Shown one piece after another: positions 323-63,090 of a stretch of 64,000 nt of DNA. Where the stretch lies: NCBI GenBank assembly GCA_963693365.1, contig CAVNZM010000006.1:7109264-7173263 (forward strand), in the 5' to 3' direction. This DNA comes from Amoebidium appalachense (Eukaryota > Protista > Ichthyosporea). The notes below the pieces were generated by a model. It did no database searches and had not been told where the DNA came from. It saw only the letters and a list, made by a program, of their open reading frames with translations. Both the position numbers and the translations under genes were made by a program. Within the stretch, counting starts at the first letter, position 1. The number at the start of each line of letters is the position of its first letter.

Positions 323-2704
323 CACATGCACATGCACATGCACACACATGCACAGGCATGCACATAAAAGCACACACCCCACCGATCATCACGCACAACC
401 CACATGCACACCTCTTGCACGTGCAACATGTCTCCTCCCCCGTGGCTGCCCGTGGCTGACCGGTTGGGTGCAGGTACGACTCTGAGGCCGGTGGGGACTC
501 GAGTGGCAGTGAGAAGGAGGGCGGGGACGACGCAGAGGTGGGCATTGCGTGTGCACGTGGATTGGGTTTGCGAGTGTGTATGTGTGTGTGTTTGTGCGCG
601 GGTGTACGGCTATGCCTGCCATTTGCCAATGGGTGTGTGTGTGATGCATGTGTGTGCGTGTGTGTCCGCTATTGCATGATGCATGCCTGCATGTGTGTGC
701 GTGTGTGTCCGCTATTGCATGATGCATGCCTGCATGTGTGTGCGTGTGTGTCCGCTATTGCATGATGCATGCCTGCATGTGTGTGCGTGTGTGTCCGCTA
801 TTGCATGATGCATGCCTGCATGTGTGTGCGTGTGTGTCCGCTATTGCATGATGCATGCCTGCGTGTGTGTGCGTGTGTGTCCGCTACTGCATGATGCATG
901 CCTGCATGTGTGCCAGGGTCTGGTATTGCATGATGCATGCCTGCATGTGTGTGCGTGTGTGTCCGCTATTGCATGATGCATGCCTGCATGTGTGTGCGTG
1001 TGTGTCCGCTATTGCATGATGCATGCCTGCATGTGTGTGCGTGTGTGTCCGCTATTGCATGATGCATGCCTGCATGTGTGTGCGTGTGTGTCCGCTATTG
1101 CATGATGCATGCCTGCGTGTGTGTGCGTGTGTGTCCGCTACTGCATGATGCATGCCTGCATGTGTGCCAGGGTCTGGTATTGCATGATGCATGCCTGCAT
1201 GTGTGTGCGTGTGTGTCCGCTATTGCATGATGCATGCCTGCGTGTGTGTGCGTGTGTGTCCGCTACTGCATGATGCATGCCTGCATGTGTGCCAGGGTCT
1301 GGTATTGCATGATGCATGCCTGCATGTGTGTGCGTGTGTGTCCGCTATTGCATGATGCATGCCTGCGTGTGTGTGCGTGTGTGTCCGCTACTGCATGATG
1401 CATGCCTGCATGTGTGCCAGGGTCTGGTATTGCATGATGCATGCCTGCATGTGTGTGCGTGTGTGTCCGCTATTGCATGATGCATGCCTGCATGTGTGTG
1501 CGTGTGTGTCCGCTATTGCATGATGCATGCCTGCATGTGTGTGCGTGTGTGTCCGCTATTGCATGATGCATGCCTGCATGTGTGTGCGTGTGTGTCCGCT
1601 ATTGCATGATGCATGCCTGCATGTGTGTGCGTGTGTGTCCGCTATTGCATGATGCATGCCTGCATGTGTGTGCGTGTGTGTCCGCTATTGCATGATTCAT
1701 GCCTGCATGTGTGTGCGTGTGTGTCCGCTACTGCACGATGCATGCCTGCATGTGTGTGCGTGTGTGTCCGCTACTGCACGATGCATGCCTGCATGTGTGT
1801 GCGTGTGTGTCCGCTACTGCACGATGCATGCCTGCATGTGTGTGCGTGTGTGTCCGCTACTGCACGATGCATGCCTGCATGTGTGCCAGGGTCTGGTATT
1901 GCATGATGCATGCCTGCATGTGTGCCAGGGTCTGCTCTTGCATGATGGATGCCTGCATGTGTGCCAGGGTCTGCTCTTGCATGATGCATGCCTGCATGTG
2001 TGCCAGGGTCTGGTGCTATTGCATGATGCATGCCTGCATGTGTGCCAGGGTCTGGTGCTATTGCATGATGCATGCCTGCATGTGTGCCAGGGTCTGGTGC
2101 TATTGCATGATGCATGCCTGCATGTGTGCCAGGGTCTGGTGCTATTGCATGATGCATGCCTGCATGTGTGCCAGGGTCTGGTGCTATTGCATGATGCATG
2201 CCTGCATGTGTGCCAGGGTCTGGTGCTCTTGTGGGGGTGGGCAGGAGAGTGTGTGATCTTCGTGTGTGCTGTCTGGGGCAGAAGGGGGTGGGGGGGGGGG
2301 GGATGGGGAGGGAAGGGGGAGGAGGGAGGGAGGAGGAGGCAACGGTTTGTACGACAGGATGCATGTGGCTGCGGTGGCAGCGACTTTCAGGGACTGACAG
2401 GCCTTTGCAGGAGGGAGACGGAGAGGAGAAGAAGGAGAAGAAGAGAAAGGCGCCCAAAGAGAAGAAGGAAAAACCGGCAAAGAAGCAGAAGACTGAGAAG
2501 CCGGAGAAGGATTCAAAGCGCAAGCAGAAGAAACAGAAGGTGCGTGCGTGTGTGTGCGTGCGTGCGTGTGTGCGTGTGTGTGTTGGGTGTGTGTGTGTGG
2601 GTGGGTGGGTGCATGGGTGCGTGGGTGGGTGGGTGCCTGCTTGTGCGCATGTGCACGTGTGCAGTGTGTCTGCGTGTGTGTGTGTGCGGGTGTTTTTTTT
2701 TTTT

Positions 2705-2752
<48 letters not shown>

Positions 2753-3753
2753 GGTAGGCATAAGGGGATAACGTGGCCTGCACAGGACGAGAATGCACCC
2801 AAGAAGCCCGTCACCCCCTACATGATGTTCTGCAAGGAGCAGAGGGAGACACTGAAGGCACAGCACCCGACACTCAGCCAGACGGTACGTGTGCACGTGC
2901 GTGTGGCGGCATATGGGGGGCACTAACAGGGTGTGGGGAGCAGGAGCTGATGAAGGCCATGGGTGAAGAGTGGAAGAAACGGGGTGACGACGAGAAGAAG
3001 GTGAGCACTGGGTGGTGGTGTGAGCACTGGGGGGTAAGGTGCACACAGGGAGCATGGGGGGGTAGTGTGAACAGTCAGGTAGAGGGTGAGCACACAGGGA
3101 GCATGGGGGCACATGGTGCCAAAGAGGTCTCGGGTGATGGAGGGCGCACAGGGCATGGACCGACGACCTGGTGGTGTAAAGGGAACGTGTTGGCTGTGTG
3201 AACCATACGTGGTGTGGTGGGTGTGTGGCCTGGGGCACTAGTGATGTGTATCCTCATGTAACCCTGGTTGGTTTGTGAGCAGAAGTACAAGGAGAGATAC
3301 GATGCGGAGATGGAGGAGTACAAGGTGCTGGCCAAGGACTACGAGGCATCAAAGCCGAAGGAGGAGTCTGAGCCAAAAGACCAGAAGAAGAAGCAGGTGC
3401 GTGGGTGGGTGGGTGGGTGGGTGGGTGGGTGGGTGCGTGAATGCGTGGTTGGGTGTGTCTGTGTGTCTTTGTAGGTGTGCATGTGTGTGCTGTACGCGTG
3501 TGTGTGCTGTGTGTGTGCATGTGTGTGCATGCGTGTGTGTGAGGTGCGAACGGGTGTGCAGCATGTGTGCATGTGTGTGTGTGTGTTTGCTGCAGAGTGT
3601 GCACGTACGTGCATGCATGCAACCCATGTGCACGTGATGCTCATGTTTTGTGTGGTGCAGGCGAGCAAGAGCAGCAAGTCACCGGCCAAGAAGAAGGTGG
3701 AGTCGCAGTATCAGAGTGCCGAGTTTATCGAGGACTCGGATGTGTCGGACTAG
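24..3753 (+). CDS. SSRP1: FACT complex subunit SSRP1, C-terminal part (acidic region, HMG box, C-terminal tail); gene begins upstream of the window
   Basis: Exons 24-72, 474-537, 2411-2539, 2786-2884, ~2945-3000, ~3283-3396 and 3661-3753 give EDDEDFKPVSESDVEEEYDSEAGGDS...KDENAPKKPVTPYMMFCKEQRETLKAQHPTLSQTELMKAMGEEWKK...KYKERY...SAEFIEDSDVSD*. The acidic DEDF..DVxEEYDS segment followed by an HMG box and an S.EF..DSD tail is the SSRP1 layout. Confidence 0.85.
655..2230. repeat. ~43-bp intronic minisatellite (GCTATTGCATGATGCATGCCTGCATGTGTGTGCGTGTGTGTCC) with an interspersed GTGCCAGGGTCTGGT variant unit
   Basis: Tandem copies are directly visible in SSRP1 intron 538-2410; the variant unit dominates after ~1880. 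Confidence 0.95.
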
Positions 3754-11102: not shown

Positions 11103-11824
11103 GCGTGTGCACGCGCGCATTGCATGTGTGTGTGTGCTCGTGCTTGTTGTATTTGGGTGTGTATGTATGTGGGCGCCCTGTGTGCACGATTTCATGTGTG
11201 TGTTTTGCCTGGTACACACCACATCCAGATGTGGGTGCATCCCTGTGCATGGCCCGTGCTGACGTCACCCTTCAGCCCGTAGGGTTCTACAACCACAAGG
11301 CCACATACCTGCAGAAGGCCTCACAAATCATCATCAACGAACACGGGGGGGACATCCCCGACACTCTGGGTAAGAGGCGGGGAAGGGAAGGGGAAAGGGG
11401 GGGGGGAAGGGGGGAGCTATCAAACAGCAAGGACTGACACGTCTGCAGAGGGGCTCATGGCACTACCGGGGGTGGGGCCCAAGATGGCACACATAGCAAT
11501 GAACGTGGCCTGGGGCAGGCCCATGGGCATAGGTGGGTGCATGCTCTGTGTGTGTGTGCCTGCATGGCCAGCATGCAGGGCTTTACTGGTGCACGTGCAG
11601 GGGTGGACGTGCACGTGCAGCGCATCTGCAACCGGCTGGGCTGGGTGCGCACGGCCAAGCCAGAGCACACCCGCAAGGCCCTGGAGCGCTGGCTGCCACC
11701 CAGCTACTGGGGGGAGGTCAACCTGCTCCTGGTGGGGCTGGGCCAGCAGACATGCACCCCTGTCAGGCCCCACTGTGCCACGTGCCTCCTGAGGACCACG
11801 TGTCCGGCATCCACCGTGAAGTAA
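9248..11824 (+). CDS. NTHL1: Endonuclease III-like DNA glycosylase/AP lyase (HhH-GPD, 4Fe-4S)
   Basis: Exons 9248-9367, 9634-9676, 9749-9819, 9888-9990, 10724-10824, 11276-11369, 11449-11532 and 11601-11824. Motifs [35 protein letters not shown], Hh[19 protein letters not shown] and C-X6-C-X2-C-X5-C ([17 protein letters not shown]). Confidence 0.95.
10185..10414. repeat. 115-bp tandem duplication (2 copies) in an NTHL1 intron
   Basis: GAGCAGTGATCGGCAGCAAGAG...GCATAATGCTTAG occurs at 10185-10299 and again at 10300-10414. Confidence 0.9.
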
Positions 11825-21728: not shown

Positions 21729-23278
21729 TCCCCCTTTCCCTACAAGCACATAAGCAGGAAGACAAAAAACATAAGCCTCAGTGAAGGTTATTTTGTTTTT
21801 GTTTTTTGTGGGGGGGGGGGGGGGGGGGGCATGAGCATGCACGGTATTTGCATGGGGTTTATGATGGAGTCAGATTGGGGTTGGGTCCTTGCTGCTGATT
21901 GGCTCAGACATGCATATGACGGGTCTGCTGTCACCTCGGCCTTTAGGCACATGCGCACACATTATGCCCGTGAACACCTACCACACACACATTATGCCCG
22001 TGAACACCTACCACACACACATTATGCCCGTGAACACCTACCACACACACATTATGCCCGTGAACACCTACCACACACACATTATGCCCGTGAACACCTA
22101 CCACTCACACATTATGCCCGTGAACACCTACCACTCACACATTATGCCCGTGAACACCTACCACACACACATTATGCCCGTGAACACCTACCACACACAC
22201 ATTATGCCCATGTGCTGCCATGCAGTTATGTGTATATCCCCCCCCTCCCCCCCCCCCTTAGCCAGGGAAGTATCGACTTAGGTAGCGACGGGGGAGCTTC
22301 CTAGAAGCCCCGTCTCCTGAGTTCCTATGTATATTTTTCTTGCTTCTGCTTACTGCTGCAACTTTAACCCCCGGCCTTTCCCACTGCCCTTGCCTGCTTA
22401 AGCAACCCTGCTCGTCTCTGATCAAGACGGGTGACCCACTCATGTTCAAGTGAAACAGTATCTGAGTTGGGTTTCGTTAACGAGGTGAATAGGTCGAAAC
22501 TCGGGTACTGTGGATGACGTGGGCCCCCCCTGAGGATGGGCTCTGCTTATTATGCATACTCTTTATGTATGGCTTGCATTCTGCATCGTGTTATCCGTTT
22601 GTTCTTGTGTACTTCGTACTTTTTGACGCATTTAAACCCCCCCTCCCCCCCCCCCCCCTCCCCCCCCCCTTTAACGTTGCTGATTTATATGCTCTCTGCA
22701 GCCCGAGAATCTTCTGATTGACCGGCACGGCAATGTGCGTGTGACGGACTTTGGGTTTGCCAAGCGGGTGACGGACAAGACGTGGACGCTGTGTGGCACC
22801 CCCGAATATCTGGCGCCTGAGATCATCCTCTCGAAGGGCTATAACCATGCCGTGGACTGGTGGGCACTCGGTACGTGCATATGGGGGGGGGGGGGGGGAG
22901 GAAGGGGAGGGAGGGGGGAGGGGGGGGGCACGTGTGTGTGTGTGGGGGGGGGGGGGGGGGGGGTGGGGGGTATTATTTTTGGGCGGGGGGGGGGGAGGGG
23001 GGCTCTTGTGTGTGTTTGGGGTGCAATGTGGAATGTATGGCCAAGGGATGGTTGGTTTTTTCTGGGGAGGGGGTTCGATACTGATTGTGGGGGCACAGGG
23101 GTGCTGATCTACGAAATGCGGTCGGGGCATGCGCCGTTTGTGGATGCAAACCAGATGGAGATGTACCGCAAGATTGTTGAGGGCCGCTTGGCCTTCCCCA
23201 ACCACTTCAAGCAGGACGAGGTGTGCATGCTGGTGTTCACTTTCGCTAATAAACACACACACTTGCACTGCTTTGCAT

Positions 23279-23317
<39 letters not shown>

Positions 23318-23804
23318 CCTCCCCTCACACGCACGCACACGCACACGCACACACACACACGTGCGCGCGTGCGCGTATTCCTTGGCATCCCTGTCCACCC
23401 CCCACCCCGTCAAACTTATGACCAATCATTCTGAGTTGTGCTGTTACTCCCCACCCACCAATCTAAACCATCACTTATCCCCCTCCCTCCTCTCCCCCCT
23501 CCCCCCTCCCCTCTCCCCCCCCTTTCTCCCGGACTAGGCGTGTTAGGCACATGCAACCCCCCAGTGCTTTATGGTGTGCCGTGGCCAGGGATTCCAGGGT
23601 TAGGAATAATGAATGGGGTTAGTGACTCGTGTTTTCTGCAGCGTGAAATGATTGCCGGGTTCCTGAGCATCGACTTGACCCGGCGCCTAGGCAACATGAA
23701 GAAGGGTGTGGCGGATATCAAGGGCCACCGCTACTTCAAGGTGTGTGTGGGGGGGGGATGATGTTATTAGTGTAGTGGGTGGGTGGGTGGGTGGGTGGGT
23801 GGGT

Positions 23805-43122: not shown

Positions 43123-43715
43123 CTAGTACCCGTTGGTAGAGTAGAACTCCCCCTCTACGGGGTTAGCCACCGGCCTAGGTCTTGGTCTTGATGGGGGCCT
43201 AAGATAGGTTAAAGCCTCATCTATGGTCTGCAGGGTAGACACGGCAGGGCCCATAATACTGATTGCACTATCGGCTATCCTGCTGGGGGCTAGGGGGTGG
43301 TCGGGGTTAACCCTTACTAGCGTGCACCTGCCCCTAGGTACCCTCCTGACGTATTCCTCAGCCATGGTGCGTATGGATGGCACACGTACACCCGCCCCCA
43401 TTTCCAGCACGACCAACCGCAGACCTTTAACCTCGCACAGGTGCAGTACGGCATCCTCCCAGCGCAGATAGTTGCTGGGGGGGTCAGGGGCCTCGATCCA
43501 CTTGTGGTCGTTGAACATAAGGACACTGGGCCGCCCTGCCGCACCACACTGTGGACACCTGTAGCCACCACGAGAGATCAATTGAGTCAAAAAAAAAGCC
43601 ATACAAAGCGCCCCAAAAGACCATACAGACCGACATACGAGCTACAGAGCGATTGATTTCATTGCCCCTATCCATATGTATTCCGCTATTCCCGTATCTT
43701 TGCCAGCCCCCCCAG

Positions 43716-43780
<65 letters not shown>

Positions 43781-44102
43781 ACCCCCACCCCCACCACACA
43801 CACCAATACCAACACAGGCATCCCCTCCCCCCCCCCCCCCTCCCCCTCTTCCCACCTCTGCTCTATCCCTTCCCATCCTCCAACTCATCCTAAGTTAAAC
43901 CCCATCATCCCAGATGCAACACCACCAGCCAGACTGTCCAAGCGCCAATCCAACCATCCTCCTTTACCTCCTAACACACAAACACACAGACACACAGACT
44001 TTGTGTGCTCCCCCCCCCCCCCACCCCACCCCCTTCCCCCCCACCAAAAAAAAGAAAAAGAAAAAAAAAAAAAAAAAAAAAAAAAACACCACCACCACCA
44101 GC

Positions 44103-44153
<51 letters not shown>

Positions 44154-44200
44154 TGTGCCGCCCTTCCCACCCCCCTCCCTACCACCAGAACCCACACACG

Positions 44201-44258
<58 letters not shown>

Positions 44259-44763
44259 GACATGCCGTGGTCCCCCCCCCCCCACGTACACACAACCACC
44301 AAAACACATACAGGCATATACACACACAAACACAAACACAGACACCCACCCACCCACATACACACAAACACCCACCTTGGCTGATCCCCCACCCACCGCA
44401 TGGTGTTAGGTTCCACACTGAACCCATCATCCAACGTCCAGTGGTGGTCCCCACACGGCACAGAGCACTGCCAGGTATCCGCATTGCCGTGTATCTCGTA
44501 TATCTCCCCCTCACTAAACCCGGCCTTGCGAAAATGCGAGTCCACATTCGACGTGAGCACAAAGAACCCCCCCGGAAGACCCTCAGTGGGGCCTATTGGC
44601 GGCAGGCTCCCCACAGAGCGAATTTTCGTGCCCGGGAGGGGGTTGCTAAGCAAATTGGGGGCACTGCTAATGGGAAGAATTGGGCCGGCTGTCTCTCGTG
44701 CCTGCCGTTTACGTTGGGCCTCTCCAAGTAGCCGACTGACCTCTTGGCGTACCATGCTAGTGT

Positions 44764-44845
<82 letters not shown>

Positions 44846-45476
44846 GATGTGAGTGTGTGCATGATGATGTTCGTGTATTCGTGTGCATATGTGTGTGACC
44901 GCATATGGGTGGGCATGTGTGTGTGTGTGTGTGCGCGAGCGCGCGCGTGTGTACATGTCGCTGACACGGGTGTGTGTGTGTGTGTGGTGAAGGGGGGGGG
45001 GGGGGGTTGAGGGGAGAGAGGTTAGGTTTGTGACGGCAGCATGGGTAGGTGGATGTGCATGCAGCCCAGTGTGTGTGCTTGTCTCTGGTGGTGGACAGTG
45101 GGTGATGACAGTCAGTGAGCTGGAGAATGTCTGTGTGTGTGTGTGTGTGTTGGTAGAGGGGAGGGGACGGTGGGGGGGAGGGGGGGGGACGGTGGGGGGT
45201 AGATTTGGCAGCCGTGTGTGTGGGTTGTGTGTTGTGAGTGTGGGTGTCTGCCAGAGGGTGTGTGTGTGGAAGGGAGGGGGGAGGGAGGGAGGGGGGAAGG
45301 AGCACGATGCAGATAAGGTGTACGGGCAGTGCATGTCATGTCTGTGTGGTGGTCTGCAGTGGGATTACTCGAACCACTGCAGCAACTTATCCACGTTTTA
45401 TCCCTCATTTCTCCCCCTCCCCTCGCCACCCCCTCCCCCCCCCCCCCCCCCCTTCATCTCTCCCCTCCCCCTCTTT

Positions 45477-45532
<56 letters not shown>

Positions 45533-45752
45533 ATTAATATTCGACAACCACTTATGCCCCAGGCCTTCAGATATCCCGACACATACCCAAGGCACAGGAT
45601 ATAGTGTCAAGGGAAAGCCGCCCTCAGGAAAGGATATGGTGTGTGTGAGAGTGTTCAGGGGGGAGGGGGGGGAGGGGGGCGGGGGAGCGAGGGAGGGAGG
45701 GAGGGAGGGAGGGAGGGAGGGAGGGAGGGAGAGAGAGAGAGAGAGAGGGAGG

Positions 45753-45791
<39 letters not shown>

Positions 45792-46407
45792 AAGTGGTGA
45801 AGGGGTGAGAGGGGACTATACTATAGAGGCCTGTTAGAAGGGATGCACAGGGGTGGACGTACATGGCAGCCTTTGTGTGGTCGAACCTCTCCTCCCTCCA
45901 CCTCTGCAGTATGTTGTAGCCAACGTGCGGTGCCACCCTCCGATAGTCCCGCACACAGGCCCCCCAGAACCCGTAGAAGAGAGAGGGGTCCCTCACAAGC
46001 CACTCCTCCGTGCATAGGTCGCTGTAGGTCAGACCCAGTGCCTGCAAAAAACAACATGAGAATGTGCTTTGCAAAAGAAATGGGGGATATGGGCGCCTGC
46101 AGGAAAGCACAAGTGCTGTAAAGGGAGCCAGCAAGTCCCGCGGCTACAGGTATAGCAGGTTGCCGTGAAGACAGTATATGCCTAGGGGATGCAAGGAGCA
46201 TTAAAGGGAAAGGGAGGGGAAGGTGTGGGCAGGTTACAGGTACACCGTGGAGCTACGACACGCTGTCACCACTTCGGAAGCACCACTTCGGAAGCAAACG
46301 AGGGAAGTTGGTGGAGTATTGGTGGAGTGGCTGGGGATGTGGGTACATGTGTCCTTTTCGCGGGAGGGGAGGAGGGGGAGGGCGACGGGGAGGGGAGGGG
46401 AGCGCGG

Positions 46408-46443
<36 letters not shown>

Positions 46444-47474
46444 GGGGGGGGGGAAGGGGGGGGAGTGGGGGGCAGGGGGGTTAGGTGGACAGTTGGGTAG
46501 GTGGTAGGGTGAGGATGATAAAGAGGGGAGGAAGAGGAGGAAAGGGTGGGAGGGGGATGTTCGTATGGCCGAAGTTGGGTGGGATCCAAACTGCGCAGTC
46601 TCAACATCCGGACAAGAACACCAAGCAGTAACAAGCGGGGTGTGCTATCTGCACATCTGCCTGCTCTCATAGCCTATGCATGTGCAGTGTGGCTGGCCAC
46701 CCACTACCACACACCTTGTAAGCCGCATAGTCCGCTATGTCCTTGTATACGGCCAGGCCGCTGTCAGCAGAGAACCCAGCCCCCGTAGCCACCAAAAGTA
46801 TGTCGGCCTCGTTGATGGCCTCGGCTGCAAGGCAGCAGTTGCGGTGGTAGTTTGCTTCGAGCTCCTGCCTGGCTGTGTCGCTGGGCGCACGTAGGCTGCC
46901 CAGGTGTGCTAGGCGCTGCTTGACAACACCGCAGTATGGCACGTTGCAGTCTAACGCCCTGCAAACATGAACGTCAATTAAGGTTCCTGCAGGCAAGACT
47001 CCGTGCATCTCTGTTACAGATTTATAATCCCTTGCTGTCCTACCTTACGACCTCTAACTTTTAGAATCATCGCTGTGTCACTGCTCAATCTAATCCCAGA
47101 CGCACAAACAGCTGTTCAGCTGCTTGTTCAGCCCAGGTGTGAGACAAGTACCAGATTCTTCAAGCAAGCCAGTTCAACCTACGCCCACGCCACACGCTCT
47201 GCCCGCACCTGCATTCCTCCGCGTGTGCGCCATATCGCGCAATAAACCCCGCGCATATCTCGCAGTCTGCCCCGCAATCTTCTGAAGTTTTCAGGTGCTT
47301 GAGTCCATATTTGACGGCCCGGCAGTGTTCCAACGTGCACTGTTCGTGCGTGCATGTGTGTGCGTGTCGTATGGCGTCTACCACCCCATGATCGCCTGCC
47401 CTACCCCTGTCCATATCCATTTTTCTGTGCATGTTCGTGCTGCGGTGGGGACTGGGAGCTAGCTGTGTACTCAT
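43123..47474 (-). CDS. NAD-dependent sirtuin (SIR2 family, bacterial/protist-type subgroup) with an N-terminal TAZ zinc finger
   Basis: Phase-consistent exons 47474-47209, 46958-46715, 46041-45863, 44756-44397 and 43558-43123. Sirtuin motifs [71 protein letters not shown] and LVRVNP. N-terminal [15 protein letters not shown]...[15 protein letters not shown]...[15 protein letters not shown]. Confidence 0.88.
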
Positions 47475-47819
47475 GTTTCCGCTATGGCTGTCTATGCGAC
47501 AACCGTGAAAGGTTTTCGACAATGACAAAGTGTGCGAGTAGATTCGAAAGGTCTCCAGGCACACCCCGTTTATATATCCCGGCAAATGACCCCCTAAACC
47601 CCGCATACCTGAGAAAGCAAAGTGAGGTGGGTGCTGAAAAGCCGAAGATTTACCTAGGTACTAATTTTTCTCTTACCTAGGCCAGAAAGTAGTCGGCATA
47701 AGAGGTATAATTCAGCTATTTCAACTATAGTTGCGTGTTCTAATAGTAGACGTTTTTGGGGTATTAAAATTAAAGAAATTTGCTCAAATAAAGACATTGA
47801 GAGAGTAAGACATGATTGA

Positions 47820-48968: not shown

Positions 48969-60990
<12,022 letters not shown>

Positions 60991-61591: not shown

Positions 61592-63090
61592 ATGGGTCTC
61601 ATCACGCAACTTTATGCGTCCGTGCTGGACACAATAGCGCGCCGCCCAGCCGTGGCACTGTGTGTCGTTGCTGCACTGTCCATGTCTCAGCTGCTGTTGG
61701 TGTGTGCGCGAAACGATCCGCCCCCCTCCCCCCAACCACTTCTGCCCCCTCCCCCCCTCCCCCCAACTTCCCCCTCGACACACACACACGCACACACAAA
61801 CGTCCTCGCCACACACACATCACCCACGTAATAATCACTTACCAAAACCTACCCACCAGTAGCCACCAGTACTGAAACTCACATGCACACCGTTGAACAA
61901 CACGGCCATCATCCAGTGATGCTTACGGCTGCACTTAGTACACTACAGAATAATTTTCTGCAGATTCAATCAAAATACAAGCATAATTAGCTAAAGCAAG
62001 ATCTTCCCCACGCACAGATCACAGCAAAGAGCGGTACAGGTTCTCCCTCCAGATCAGCTCAGCGCAGAATCAAAGAGTCAGCGGACGATGAGGATGAGGA
62101 AGAAAACGAGGCTGGGCCTGTGGGGGGCAAGAGGAGCAAACAGCCTGACTTCGAGGAGGGGGAACACGTACCCTACGTGCAGAAGTATGCCTTTGACGAG
62201 GACAACATGTTGCGTCGCTCGGAAGAGTTCTACGATATGATGAACGGTAAGTACTTTTTGTGACACAGAGGAATATTGTTTATGGGAATTGCATATGCTG
62301 TCCACTGGCAAGGTTACCAAACCCATGCTCCTCTCCGGATCTTATATGCTTTCACTACCCTATTCCCATAAAGTTCGCTTCTTTTGCGCGTTGGCAACCA
62401 CAAGTTCTTTTGCTACTGCTGCCTGCTTGTCCACACTCTAAATTTCTACTTCCTTCTGCTAGTACCTGCTATGCACACTAAACAAACCGACAGCTAAGTC
62501 GGACTCTTTTTGAGGTACGAGAATTGCACGACAACGTGGTGCTACAACATGCCTTAAAGTCCCTTGCTGGCCATTTCTAGACTTAATTTGCTCTTGTTTA
62601 CAGCCCGTCGGTCGTGCCGGTTCTTCAGCACTAAGGACGTGCCCAGCGGTGTGATTGAGAACATCATACGGACAGGGGTGAGTGCCATGGCTAGTAGTGG
62701 CATCACGAGAAAGAGCCCGACGTGCCCATAACCTGTTGGTAGTGATCTTCAAGCTCATTTTGGACAATTAGAAGCACAGGACATTCTAGATCTGTTTGGA
62801 AGACAGCAAAACACACCCAATCGCCACATTTGCAAAGACTCGTATGAGGGGAACAATGCACACACAGAACCAAATAGAACACCGGCTACATAGTTACGCC
62901 TCAACCCACCACTCTGCACAACCCACACAGCCCACAGACCCACCTGCTTGTACCTGTGTGCGCTAGTTTCGTGCCCTCTGTCTCTCTGTCTGCCTCTGTC
63001 GCTAATACATTGTCGCCACGCTACCCCCCACTCACTGTATCTTCCCATATCTTCTCACAGGGTACGGCACCATCAGGGGCCCACACAGAG
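61592..63090 (+). CDS. IYD: Iodotyrosine deiodinase (nitroreductase fold) with N-terminal membrane anchor; 3' part lies beyond the window or was not found
   Basis: Phase-consistent exons 61592-61699, 62018-62246, 62604-62677 and 63061-63090 give a hydrophobic PAVALCVVAALSMSQLLLI segment, then EHVPY...[52 protein letters not shown], the IYD signature. Confidence 0.9.

Follow-up and report, generated by a model that had tools for sequence, protein, structure and literature searches.

We report that a gene within a 64,000-nucleotide stretch of Amoebidium appalachense DNA (contig CAVNZM010000006.1 of assembly GCA_963693365.1, positions 7,109,264 to 7,173,263; hereafter the window) encodes a TAZ2-type zinc finger placed in front of a sirtuin domain. 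The gene lies on the minus strand (47474-43123 of the window) and has five exons, whose 1506 nucleotides form a single open frame of 501 residues. The encoded protein, TAZ-sirtuin, is a real, spliced combination of two known parts in one lineage; its catalytic part belongs to a poorly known sirtuin clade, and the architecture is apparently undescribed. TAZ fingers are best known as the recruitment and switch-on sites of the p300/CBP acetyltransferases. TAZ-sirtuin pairs this module of an acetyl "writer" with a predicted "eraser", which would mean that the module is reused for the opposite reaction. The best reading is that of a lineage-restricted, partner-guided deacylase, both the activity and the partners being predicted. 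More specifically, we lean towards a lysine deacylase dependent on nicotinamide adenine dinucleotide (NAD+), in which the finger would guide a His-bearing sirtuin of a protist clade to its partners. The gene and the elements discussed below are laid out as follows, SirTM denoting the class M sirtuins.

47569..47576, minus strand: TATA-like box TATATAAA, upstream of the start codon at 47474
47209..47474, minus strand: coding exon 1 (residues 1-89), with the start codon, a short leader and TAZ ligands 1-10
46959..47208, minus strand: intron 1 (250 nucleotides, GT..AG, phase 2), which interrupts the third zinc cluster
46715..46958, minus strand: coding exon 2 (residues 89-170), with C93, C98, a linker of ~11 residues and the sirtuin start with GAGFSADSG
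45863..46041, minus strand: coding exon 3 (residues 171-230), helical region of the sirtuin
44376..44756, minus strand: coding exon 4 (residues 230-357), with a Pro-rich insert (~243-284), TSNVD, EIHG and the first of the two Cys pairs in the sirtuin zinc site
43123..43558, minus strand: coding exon 5 (residues 357-501), with the C-terminal part of the sirtuin and the stop, putatively joined to exon 4
46907..47384, minus strand: TAZ2-type zinc finger (residues 31-106), divided by intron 1
43201..46873, minus strand: sirtuin domain (residues 118-476), spread over exons 2-5
44489..44491, minus strand: codon of His319 (EIHG), at the catalytic-base position, where SirTM has Gln (from the sequence and the accessible part of PMC4518038)

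After splicing, the finger presents twelve zinc ligands in three clusters (H37 C41 C46 C51 / H60 C67 C71 C74 / H84 C88 C93 C98), in the pattern that an initial annotation of this stretch had given. The TAZ2-type identity proposed there is borne out as well. Exon 1 by itself reached 27.5 bits on Pfam zf-TAZ (PF02135; cut-off 25, expectation value (E) 4.4e-6), and every one of its 14 PDB matches at E<=1 was a p300 or CBP chain, the best at E 0.001. Among 200,000 shuffles of residues 1-110, not one contained a relaxed version of the ligand pattern, a rough control in that the pattern was taken from the tested sequence itself. The hydrophobic positions of the TAZ helices are preserved in the alignment to p300. 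In a language-model atlas, TAZ clusters were ranked first with a top value of 0.90, which lies below the recognition threshold and serves as a lead only, and a structure model of the portion encoded by exon 1, made from its sequence alone, was uninformative (two helices, predicted local distance difference test (pLDDT) score of 51). The finger departs from p300 in two respects. Its second cluster is spaced H-x6-C-x3-C-x2-C instead of H-x3-C-x7-C-x2-C, and its residues 28-88 hold 6 Lys/Arg and 10 Asp/Glu, compared to 11 and 0 in the aligned p300 stretch; these are residue counts only, the p300 count having been made by hand on an engineered construct. The isoelectric point of residues 31-106 is 6.6.

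Splicing was followed in assembled contigs of two runs, X1 and X2, which derive from one sample of one study and whose RNA nature is an automatic guess; the contigs skip GT-AG introns. Every intron of the TAZ-sirtuin gene has GT..AG borders. The join from 47209 to 46958, predicted in the initial annotation, appears as a 250-base skip in contigs of both X1 (depth 80) and X2 (depth 3.7), the X2 contig extending 99 and 59 letters on its two sides. Although 45 frame-keeping GT-AG alternatives between exons 1 and 2 exist in the scanned range, the contigs use only this one. Contigs of both runs lead from exon 2 into exon 3 and connect exon 4 back to exon 3; in a 2117-nucleotide X1 contig, exon 2 occupies positions 1-250 and exon 4 positions 429-808, leaving a gap that exon 3 fits exactly. 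Three of the four splice junctions of the gene are therefore visible in contigs. The fourth, between exons 4 and 5, coincides with a repeat edge, is not displayed in the contigs and is placed provisionally from frame and homology. Because C93, C98 and the first motif of the sirtuin share exon 2, the fusion does not depend on any long-range join. A contig retaining intron 1 (46934-47237) was also seen, at depth 7 compared to 80 for the spliced join; retention would stop translation inside the intron, and this contig may represent precursor messenger RNA or DNA.

On the 5' side of the gene, contigs end near the start at 47488 and, furthest out, at 47529. An in-frame ATG at 47606 was set aside, since it precedes the TATA-like box and lies beyond all contigs; this favours the ATG at 47474 as the start codon. 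A short contig (48135-48394, depth 7.4) was observed ~660 bases upstream of the start codon.

The sirtuin is complete and keeps the catalytic His, in agreement with the initial annotation. A family profile of 356 positions, which was built from 74 relatives with no window sequence included, is matched by residues 118-476 from position 8 to position 344 (370 bits); relative to this profile, they harbor a single insert of ~42 residues. The expected landmarks are GAGFS at 148, N300/D302, EIHG at 317-320 (His319), EMGAG at 409, N441 and RVNP, together with a zinc site formed by C327, C331, C358 and C361. The class M motif GVGx[NT]TP is absent, GAGVRVP standing in its place. An HMMER search for zf-TAZ and SIR2 had been suggested along with the annotation: the zf-TAZ match exceeds its cut-off, but exon 4 alone gave only 18.1 bits on Pfam SIR2 (PF02146; cut-off 24). 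Such low scores are common among members of the same clade, many of which fall below the SIR2 cut-off and may be missed by surveys. When Pfam was run on the five exon frames, it returned zf-TAZ and SIR2 only, without KAT11, bromo, KIX or ZZ domains, and all 501 residues were accounted for.

The relatives of this sirtuin are proteobacterial sirtuins and, closer, a group of protist proteins, which supports the bacterial/protist affinity suggested previously. At E<=0.001 our search matched 4875 representatives, of which 1010 reached E<=1e-30, bacterial relatives included, and the best 150 of the 4875 were listed. On the search profile, which contained the window protein's own exon pieces, the spliced protein scored 440 bits, compared to a floor of 307 bits for these 150; identity to the best clade members was ~44% over 200+ residues, with none higher among the 150. 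Going by sequence, neither the protein nor a close orthologue is among the representatives inspected (best 150 of 4875).

In a 63-row tree, which was computed without eukaryotic SIRT1-7 and with rows L001, L044 and L052 left out, the window protein falls within a 38-row protist clade (support 100/99). This clade joins six sirtuins of the Gln-Gly (QG) type at 96/95, 13 bacterial rows of the His-Gly (HG) type stand beside the combined group, and all of these are separated at 100/100 from six canonical bacterial outgroups including E. coli CobB. In a quick tree that included one mistranslated row (L001), the protist/QG node was not settled. In terms of descent, the sirtuin is thus sister to class M; its catalytic residue, however, is that of the deacylases (His). 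Of 159 stored clade proteins, 151 have the catalytic His (of the others, 7 are unmatched by the pattern and 1 has Gln), indicating that it is under selection across the clade. The best PDB match of the clade profile was Streptococcus SirTM (E 2.8e-9), followed by SIRT5 (7.6e-8), the matches to SIRT3-7 being weak (E 7.6e-8 or worse). P0183, a clade relative from Flamella, folds at pLDDT 92.6, and its fold matches Mfs1 (Z 25.1, root mean square deviation 3.8, 276 aligned), SirTM (23.4, 3.4, 274) and Hst2 (22.5, 3.1, 269), in a family order that a second structure comparison reproduced.

The protist clade (P0005-P0022 and P0145-P0285) is characterized by a G[FW]SADSG signature, a conserved HG and its position as sister to class M. 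It includes amoebozoans, oomycetes, a euglenid, metamonads and Chromera (20 members looked up plus long matches), with Flamella, Balamuthia, Saprolegnia, Aphanomyces, Entosiphon, Carpediemonas, Dysnectes and Chromera among the named members, and no name for it was found in the literature searched. Fewer than 70 residues precede the motif in 100 of 137 signature-bearing proteins, compared to 149 in the window protein. Clade members carry other add-ons (NUDIX/thioredoxin/glutaredoxin, ankyrin and DVNP), so that tethering of modules to this enzyme recurs. The DVNP domain lies at the N terminus of P0265 (residues 9-56, Pfam E 2.7e-9; cluster mate P0312) on a sirtuin of the same clade, and these two contig-derived sequences could represent either a chromatin-tethered sirtuin or a chimeric transcript. 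Fusions observed among the relatives P0003, P0004, P0008, P0023 and P0024 are WYL-WCX-sirtuin, TIR-sirtuin, sirtuin-NUDIX-thioredoxin-glutaredoxin, macrodomain-QG sirtuin and ankyrin-sirtuin, the bacterial WYL and TIR fusions hinting at defence or stress roles.

Some further observations concern more distant loci. Among bacterial HG-type relatives located on plasmids, one (L001:1-5053) has as neighbours a WYL gene as well as genes for an ATP-binding protein and for a dual-specificity phosphatase, and in another case (L002:2485-5961) two copies flank one gene. In Streptomyces (L004-L019), all seven loci read have QG instead of HG and are thus SirTM-like; this genus is not named among the SirTM groups in the accessible part of PMC4518038. 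L020 was rejected as a relative, being a chance match within an unrelated protein.

The initial annotation knew of no description of this architecture, and we likewise found no such fusion among the relatives examined or in the literature searched. Pfam detected no TAZ domain in 24 long relatives, nor in 45 proteins chosen for length or N-terminal extension among 141 new representatives. With the finger as query, phmmer on 317 stored relatives retrieved no TAZ (the top score, 8.9 bits, fell on the zinc region of the sirtuin itself), tblastn on 42 loci retrieved none (best E 0.38), and a viral-contig scan gave 33 pattern matches and no relative. A metagenome scan with exon 2 (26 of 64 parts) yielded 22 loci, but no match to the 16 residues with which the query begins and which belong to the TAZ finger, and a word-indexed search with exon 5 among proteins of 253-2000 residues, a weak search, found none among 1470 candidates. 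In the literature, the one paper naming a TAZ domain, a sirtuin and a protist treats them separately, and the supplement of PMC9486876 contains no true TAZ match; the supplements of a eukaryotic chromatin survey (bioRxiv 10.1101/2021.11.30.470311), which we did not see, may list the fusion.

How might such a protein work? By analogy with sirtuin chemistry, NAD+ would be cleaved and the acyl group transferred to adenosine diphosphate ribose (ADP-ribose), with His319 as the base. By analogy with TAZ2, a partner protein would insert an amphipathic helix into the hydrophobic groove of the finger, and the docked partner or its complex would be held at a distance of about ten residues from where the catalytic domain begins. 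Since the finger is about neutral, acidic activation domains of the classic kind are probably not among the partners. Domain shuffling in one lineage is the likely origin of the fusion, a CBP/p300-like gene being the probable, though putative, donor.

Several points weigh against a partner-guided deacylase. The nearest characterized class, SirTM, is without deacylase activity according to the accessible part of PMC4518038, and no measured activity for any member of the protist clade was found in the literature searched. The cofactor loop reads GLAVYKD, compared to GLPxFRG in the bacterial relatives, and the respaced second TAZ cluster implies that the local fold of the finger may differ from that of p300. 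All expression evidence comes from the one study, and the fusion turned up in no other species among the sequences searched, which leaves selection on it unmeasurable.

The initial annotation had gone further and raised a possible "anti-CBP" that captures and deacylates activation domains. Spelled out, the finger would bind the acidic activation domains recognized by CBP/p300 TAZ2 and the sirtuin would deacetylate the bound factors or histones in their vicinity, so that the protein would serve as a co-repressor in the nucleus. The TAZ2-type spacing and the exclusive PDB matches to p300/CBP are in line with this idea, as are the fusion of P0265 to DVNP (a transcript contig that could be chimeric) and a basic stretch in the insert, RKRQAR, that by eye is a candidate nuclear signal. 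However, positively charged residues surround the groove of p300 TAZ2 and contact acidic side chains in STAT1, B-Myb and E1A (PMC3534135, accessible part), whereas the window finger has 6 basic and 10 acidic residues where p300 has 11 and 0, and a pI of 6.6. With the basic surface lost and the second cluster respaced, capture of acidic activation domains is so far not supported; the idea is also weakened by the nearest class, SirTM, not being a deacylase (PMC4518038, same part), though the window protein keeps its His. The splice, the domains and the affinity given in the initial annotation are thus supported, as is the absence of the architecture from the relatives and the literature examined, while an "anti-CBP" acting on acidic activation domains has weaker grounds than the annotation claimed, and we consider that proposal unlikely. 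The same low likelihood attaches to the broadest version, according to which helices of transcription factors are caught by the finger and presented, they or chromatin in the neighbourhood, to a sirtuin whose undescribed class runs across protists as sister to the SirTMs, making a one-protein p300/CBP antagonist in a unicellular relative of animals.

Slightly less probable still is an allosteric switch, in which the finger would pack on the sirtuin and damp its activity until a ligand relieved the block. The TAZ2 of p300 keeps the catalytic domain next to it autoinhibited until a ligand binds (PMC9755262, accessible part), and a linker of only ~11 residues would suit such an arrangement, but the p300 mechanism needs a surface of the histone acetyltransferase (HAT) domain, and an equivalent contact on sirtuins is not known.

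A SirTM-like enzyme, which would transfer ADP-ribose (or hydrolyse NAD+) without deacylation while the finger selects the target, appears improbable to us. The clade groups with QG-type sirtuins at 96/95, and the sequence and structure comparisons put SirTM and Mfs1 first. Nevertheless, class M is defined by a QG where other sirtuins have HG, by the motif GVGx[NT]TP and by linkage to a macrodomain (Rack et al. 2015, PMC4518038, accessible part). The SirTMs described there ADP-ribosylate without deacylating, and a His at the QG position abolished this activity. The window protein has HG, GAGVRVP and no fused macrodomain, and the protist/QG node was not settled in the quick tree.

That the finger is a recent, drifting and functionless passenger on an ordinary clade sirtuin is very improbable. 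The fusion is found in one genome only, the second cluster is respaced and the basic surface is lost, as drift would have it. On the other hand, all twelve ligands and the hydrophobic pattern of the helices are kept despite the distance from p300, and an intron within the third cluster is spliced in frame, which makes a long time under selection the simpler reading. Finally, an artefact fusing two neighbouring genes in the assembly or the gene model, for which one could invoke the repeat-rich introns, the single study and the use of contigs instead of raw reads, has a negligible chance, because a single exon holds both the last two TAZ ligands and the first sirtuin motif, and contigs of two runs show the splice that leads into it.

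A predicted partner-guided deacylase of this kind would offer a small system for asking which partners TAZ fingers have in organisms other than animals. The protein also draws attention to a sirtuin clade that is widespread in protists and has kept its His beside the ADP-ribosylating class M, and the activity of one clade member would help to place the switch between deacylation and ADP-ribosylation. The significance is bounded by the fusion being known from one genome and by add-on domains being common on protist sirtuins.

The window contains pieces of other genes: an HMG-box protein (2195-3198, plus strand), an HhH-GPD glycosylase (11552-11821, plus strand), a catalytic subunit of protein kinase A (PKA; 22684-23418, plus strand), a protein with a double-stranded RNA-binding domain (53964-54743, minus strand) and, by a weak match (E 0.06), a probable iodotyrosine deiodinase (62120-62248, plus strand). 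The PKA exon scored 107.9 bits on mammalian PKA compared to 85.6 on the yeast enzyme, which we take PDB 1fot to be. By these signs the source is an intron-rich eukaryote and likely one of the unicellular relatives of animals. No macrodomain was detected beside the TAZ-sirtuin gene in the 18 neighbouring frames scanned, which make up part of the window's exons.

With TAZ2 of p300/CBP (PF02135; PDB 3t92, 2k8f and 1f81), TAZ-sirtuin has in common the three HCCC clusters, the same H-x3-C-x4-C-x4-C spacing of the first and third, the hydrophobic helix pattern and a position beside a domain acting on acyl-lysine. It differs in that the finger is about neutral where that of p300 is strongly basic, in the spacing of the second cluster and in that the finger is N-terminal to a sirtuin, HAT, bromo, KIX and ZZ domains all being absent. 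Class M SirTM and the fungal Mfs1 (PDB 5a3a and 8rsn) are the nearest solved relatives, both by profile and by the fold of the clade relative; they form the sister group in the tree, and Mfs1 is likewise a fusion enzyme. Unlike these, the window protein has HG and not QG, lacks GVGx[NT]TP and a fused macrodomain, and carries a TAZ finger in front. With respect to the protist G[FW]SADSG clade and its proteobacterial HG relatives, the protein lies inside the clade, whereas the stored members are without the finger. Animal SIR8 with CAP-C (PMC9486876, accessible part) also places an interaction module N-terminal to a sirtuin; it combines, however, another sirtuin class with another module, one that does not come from an acetyltransferase co-activator.

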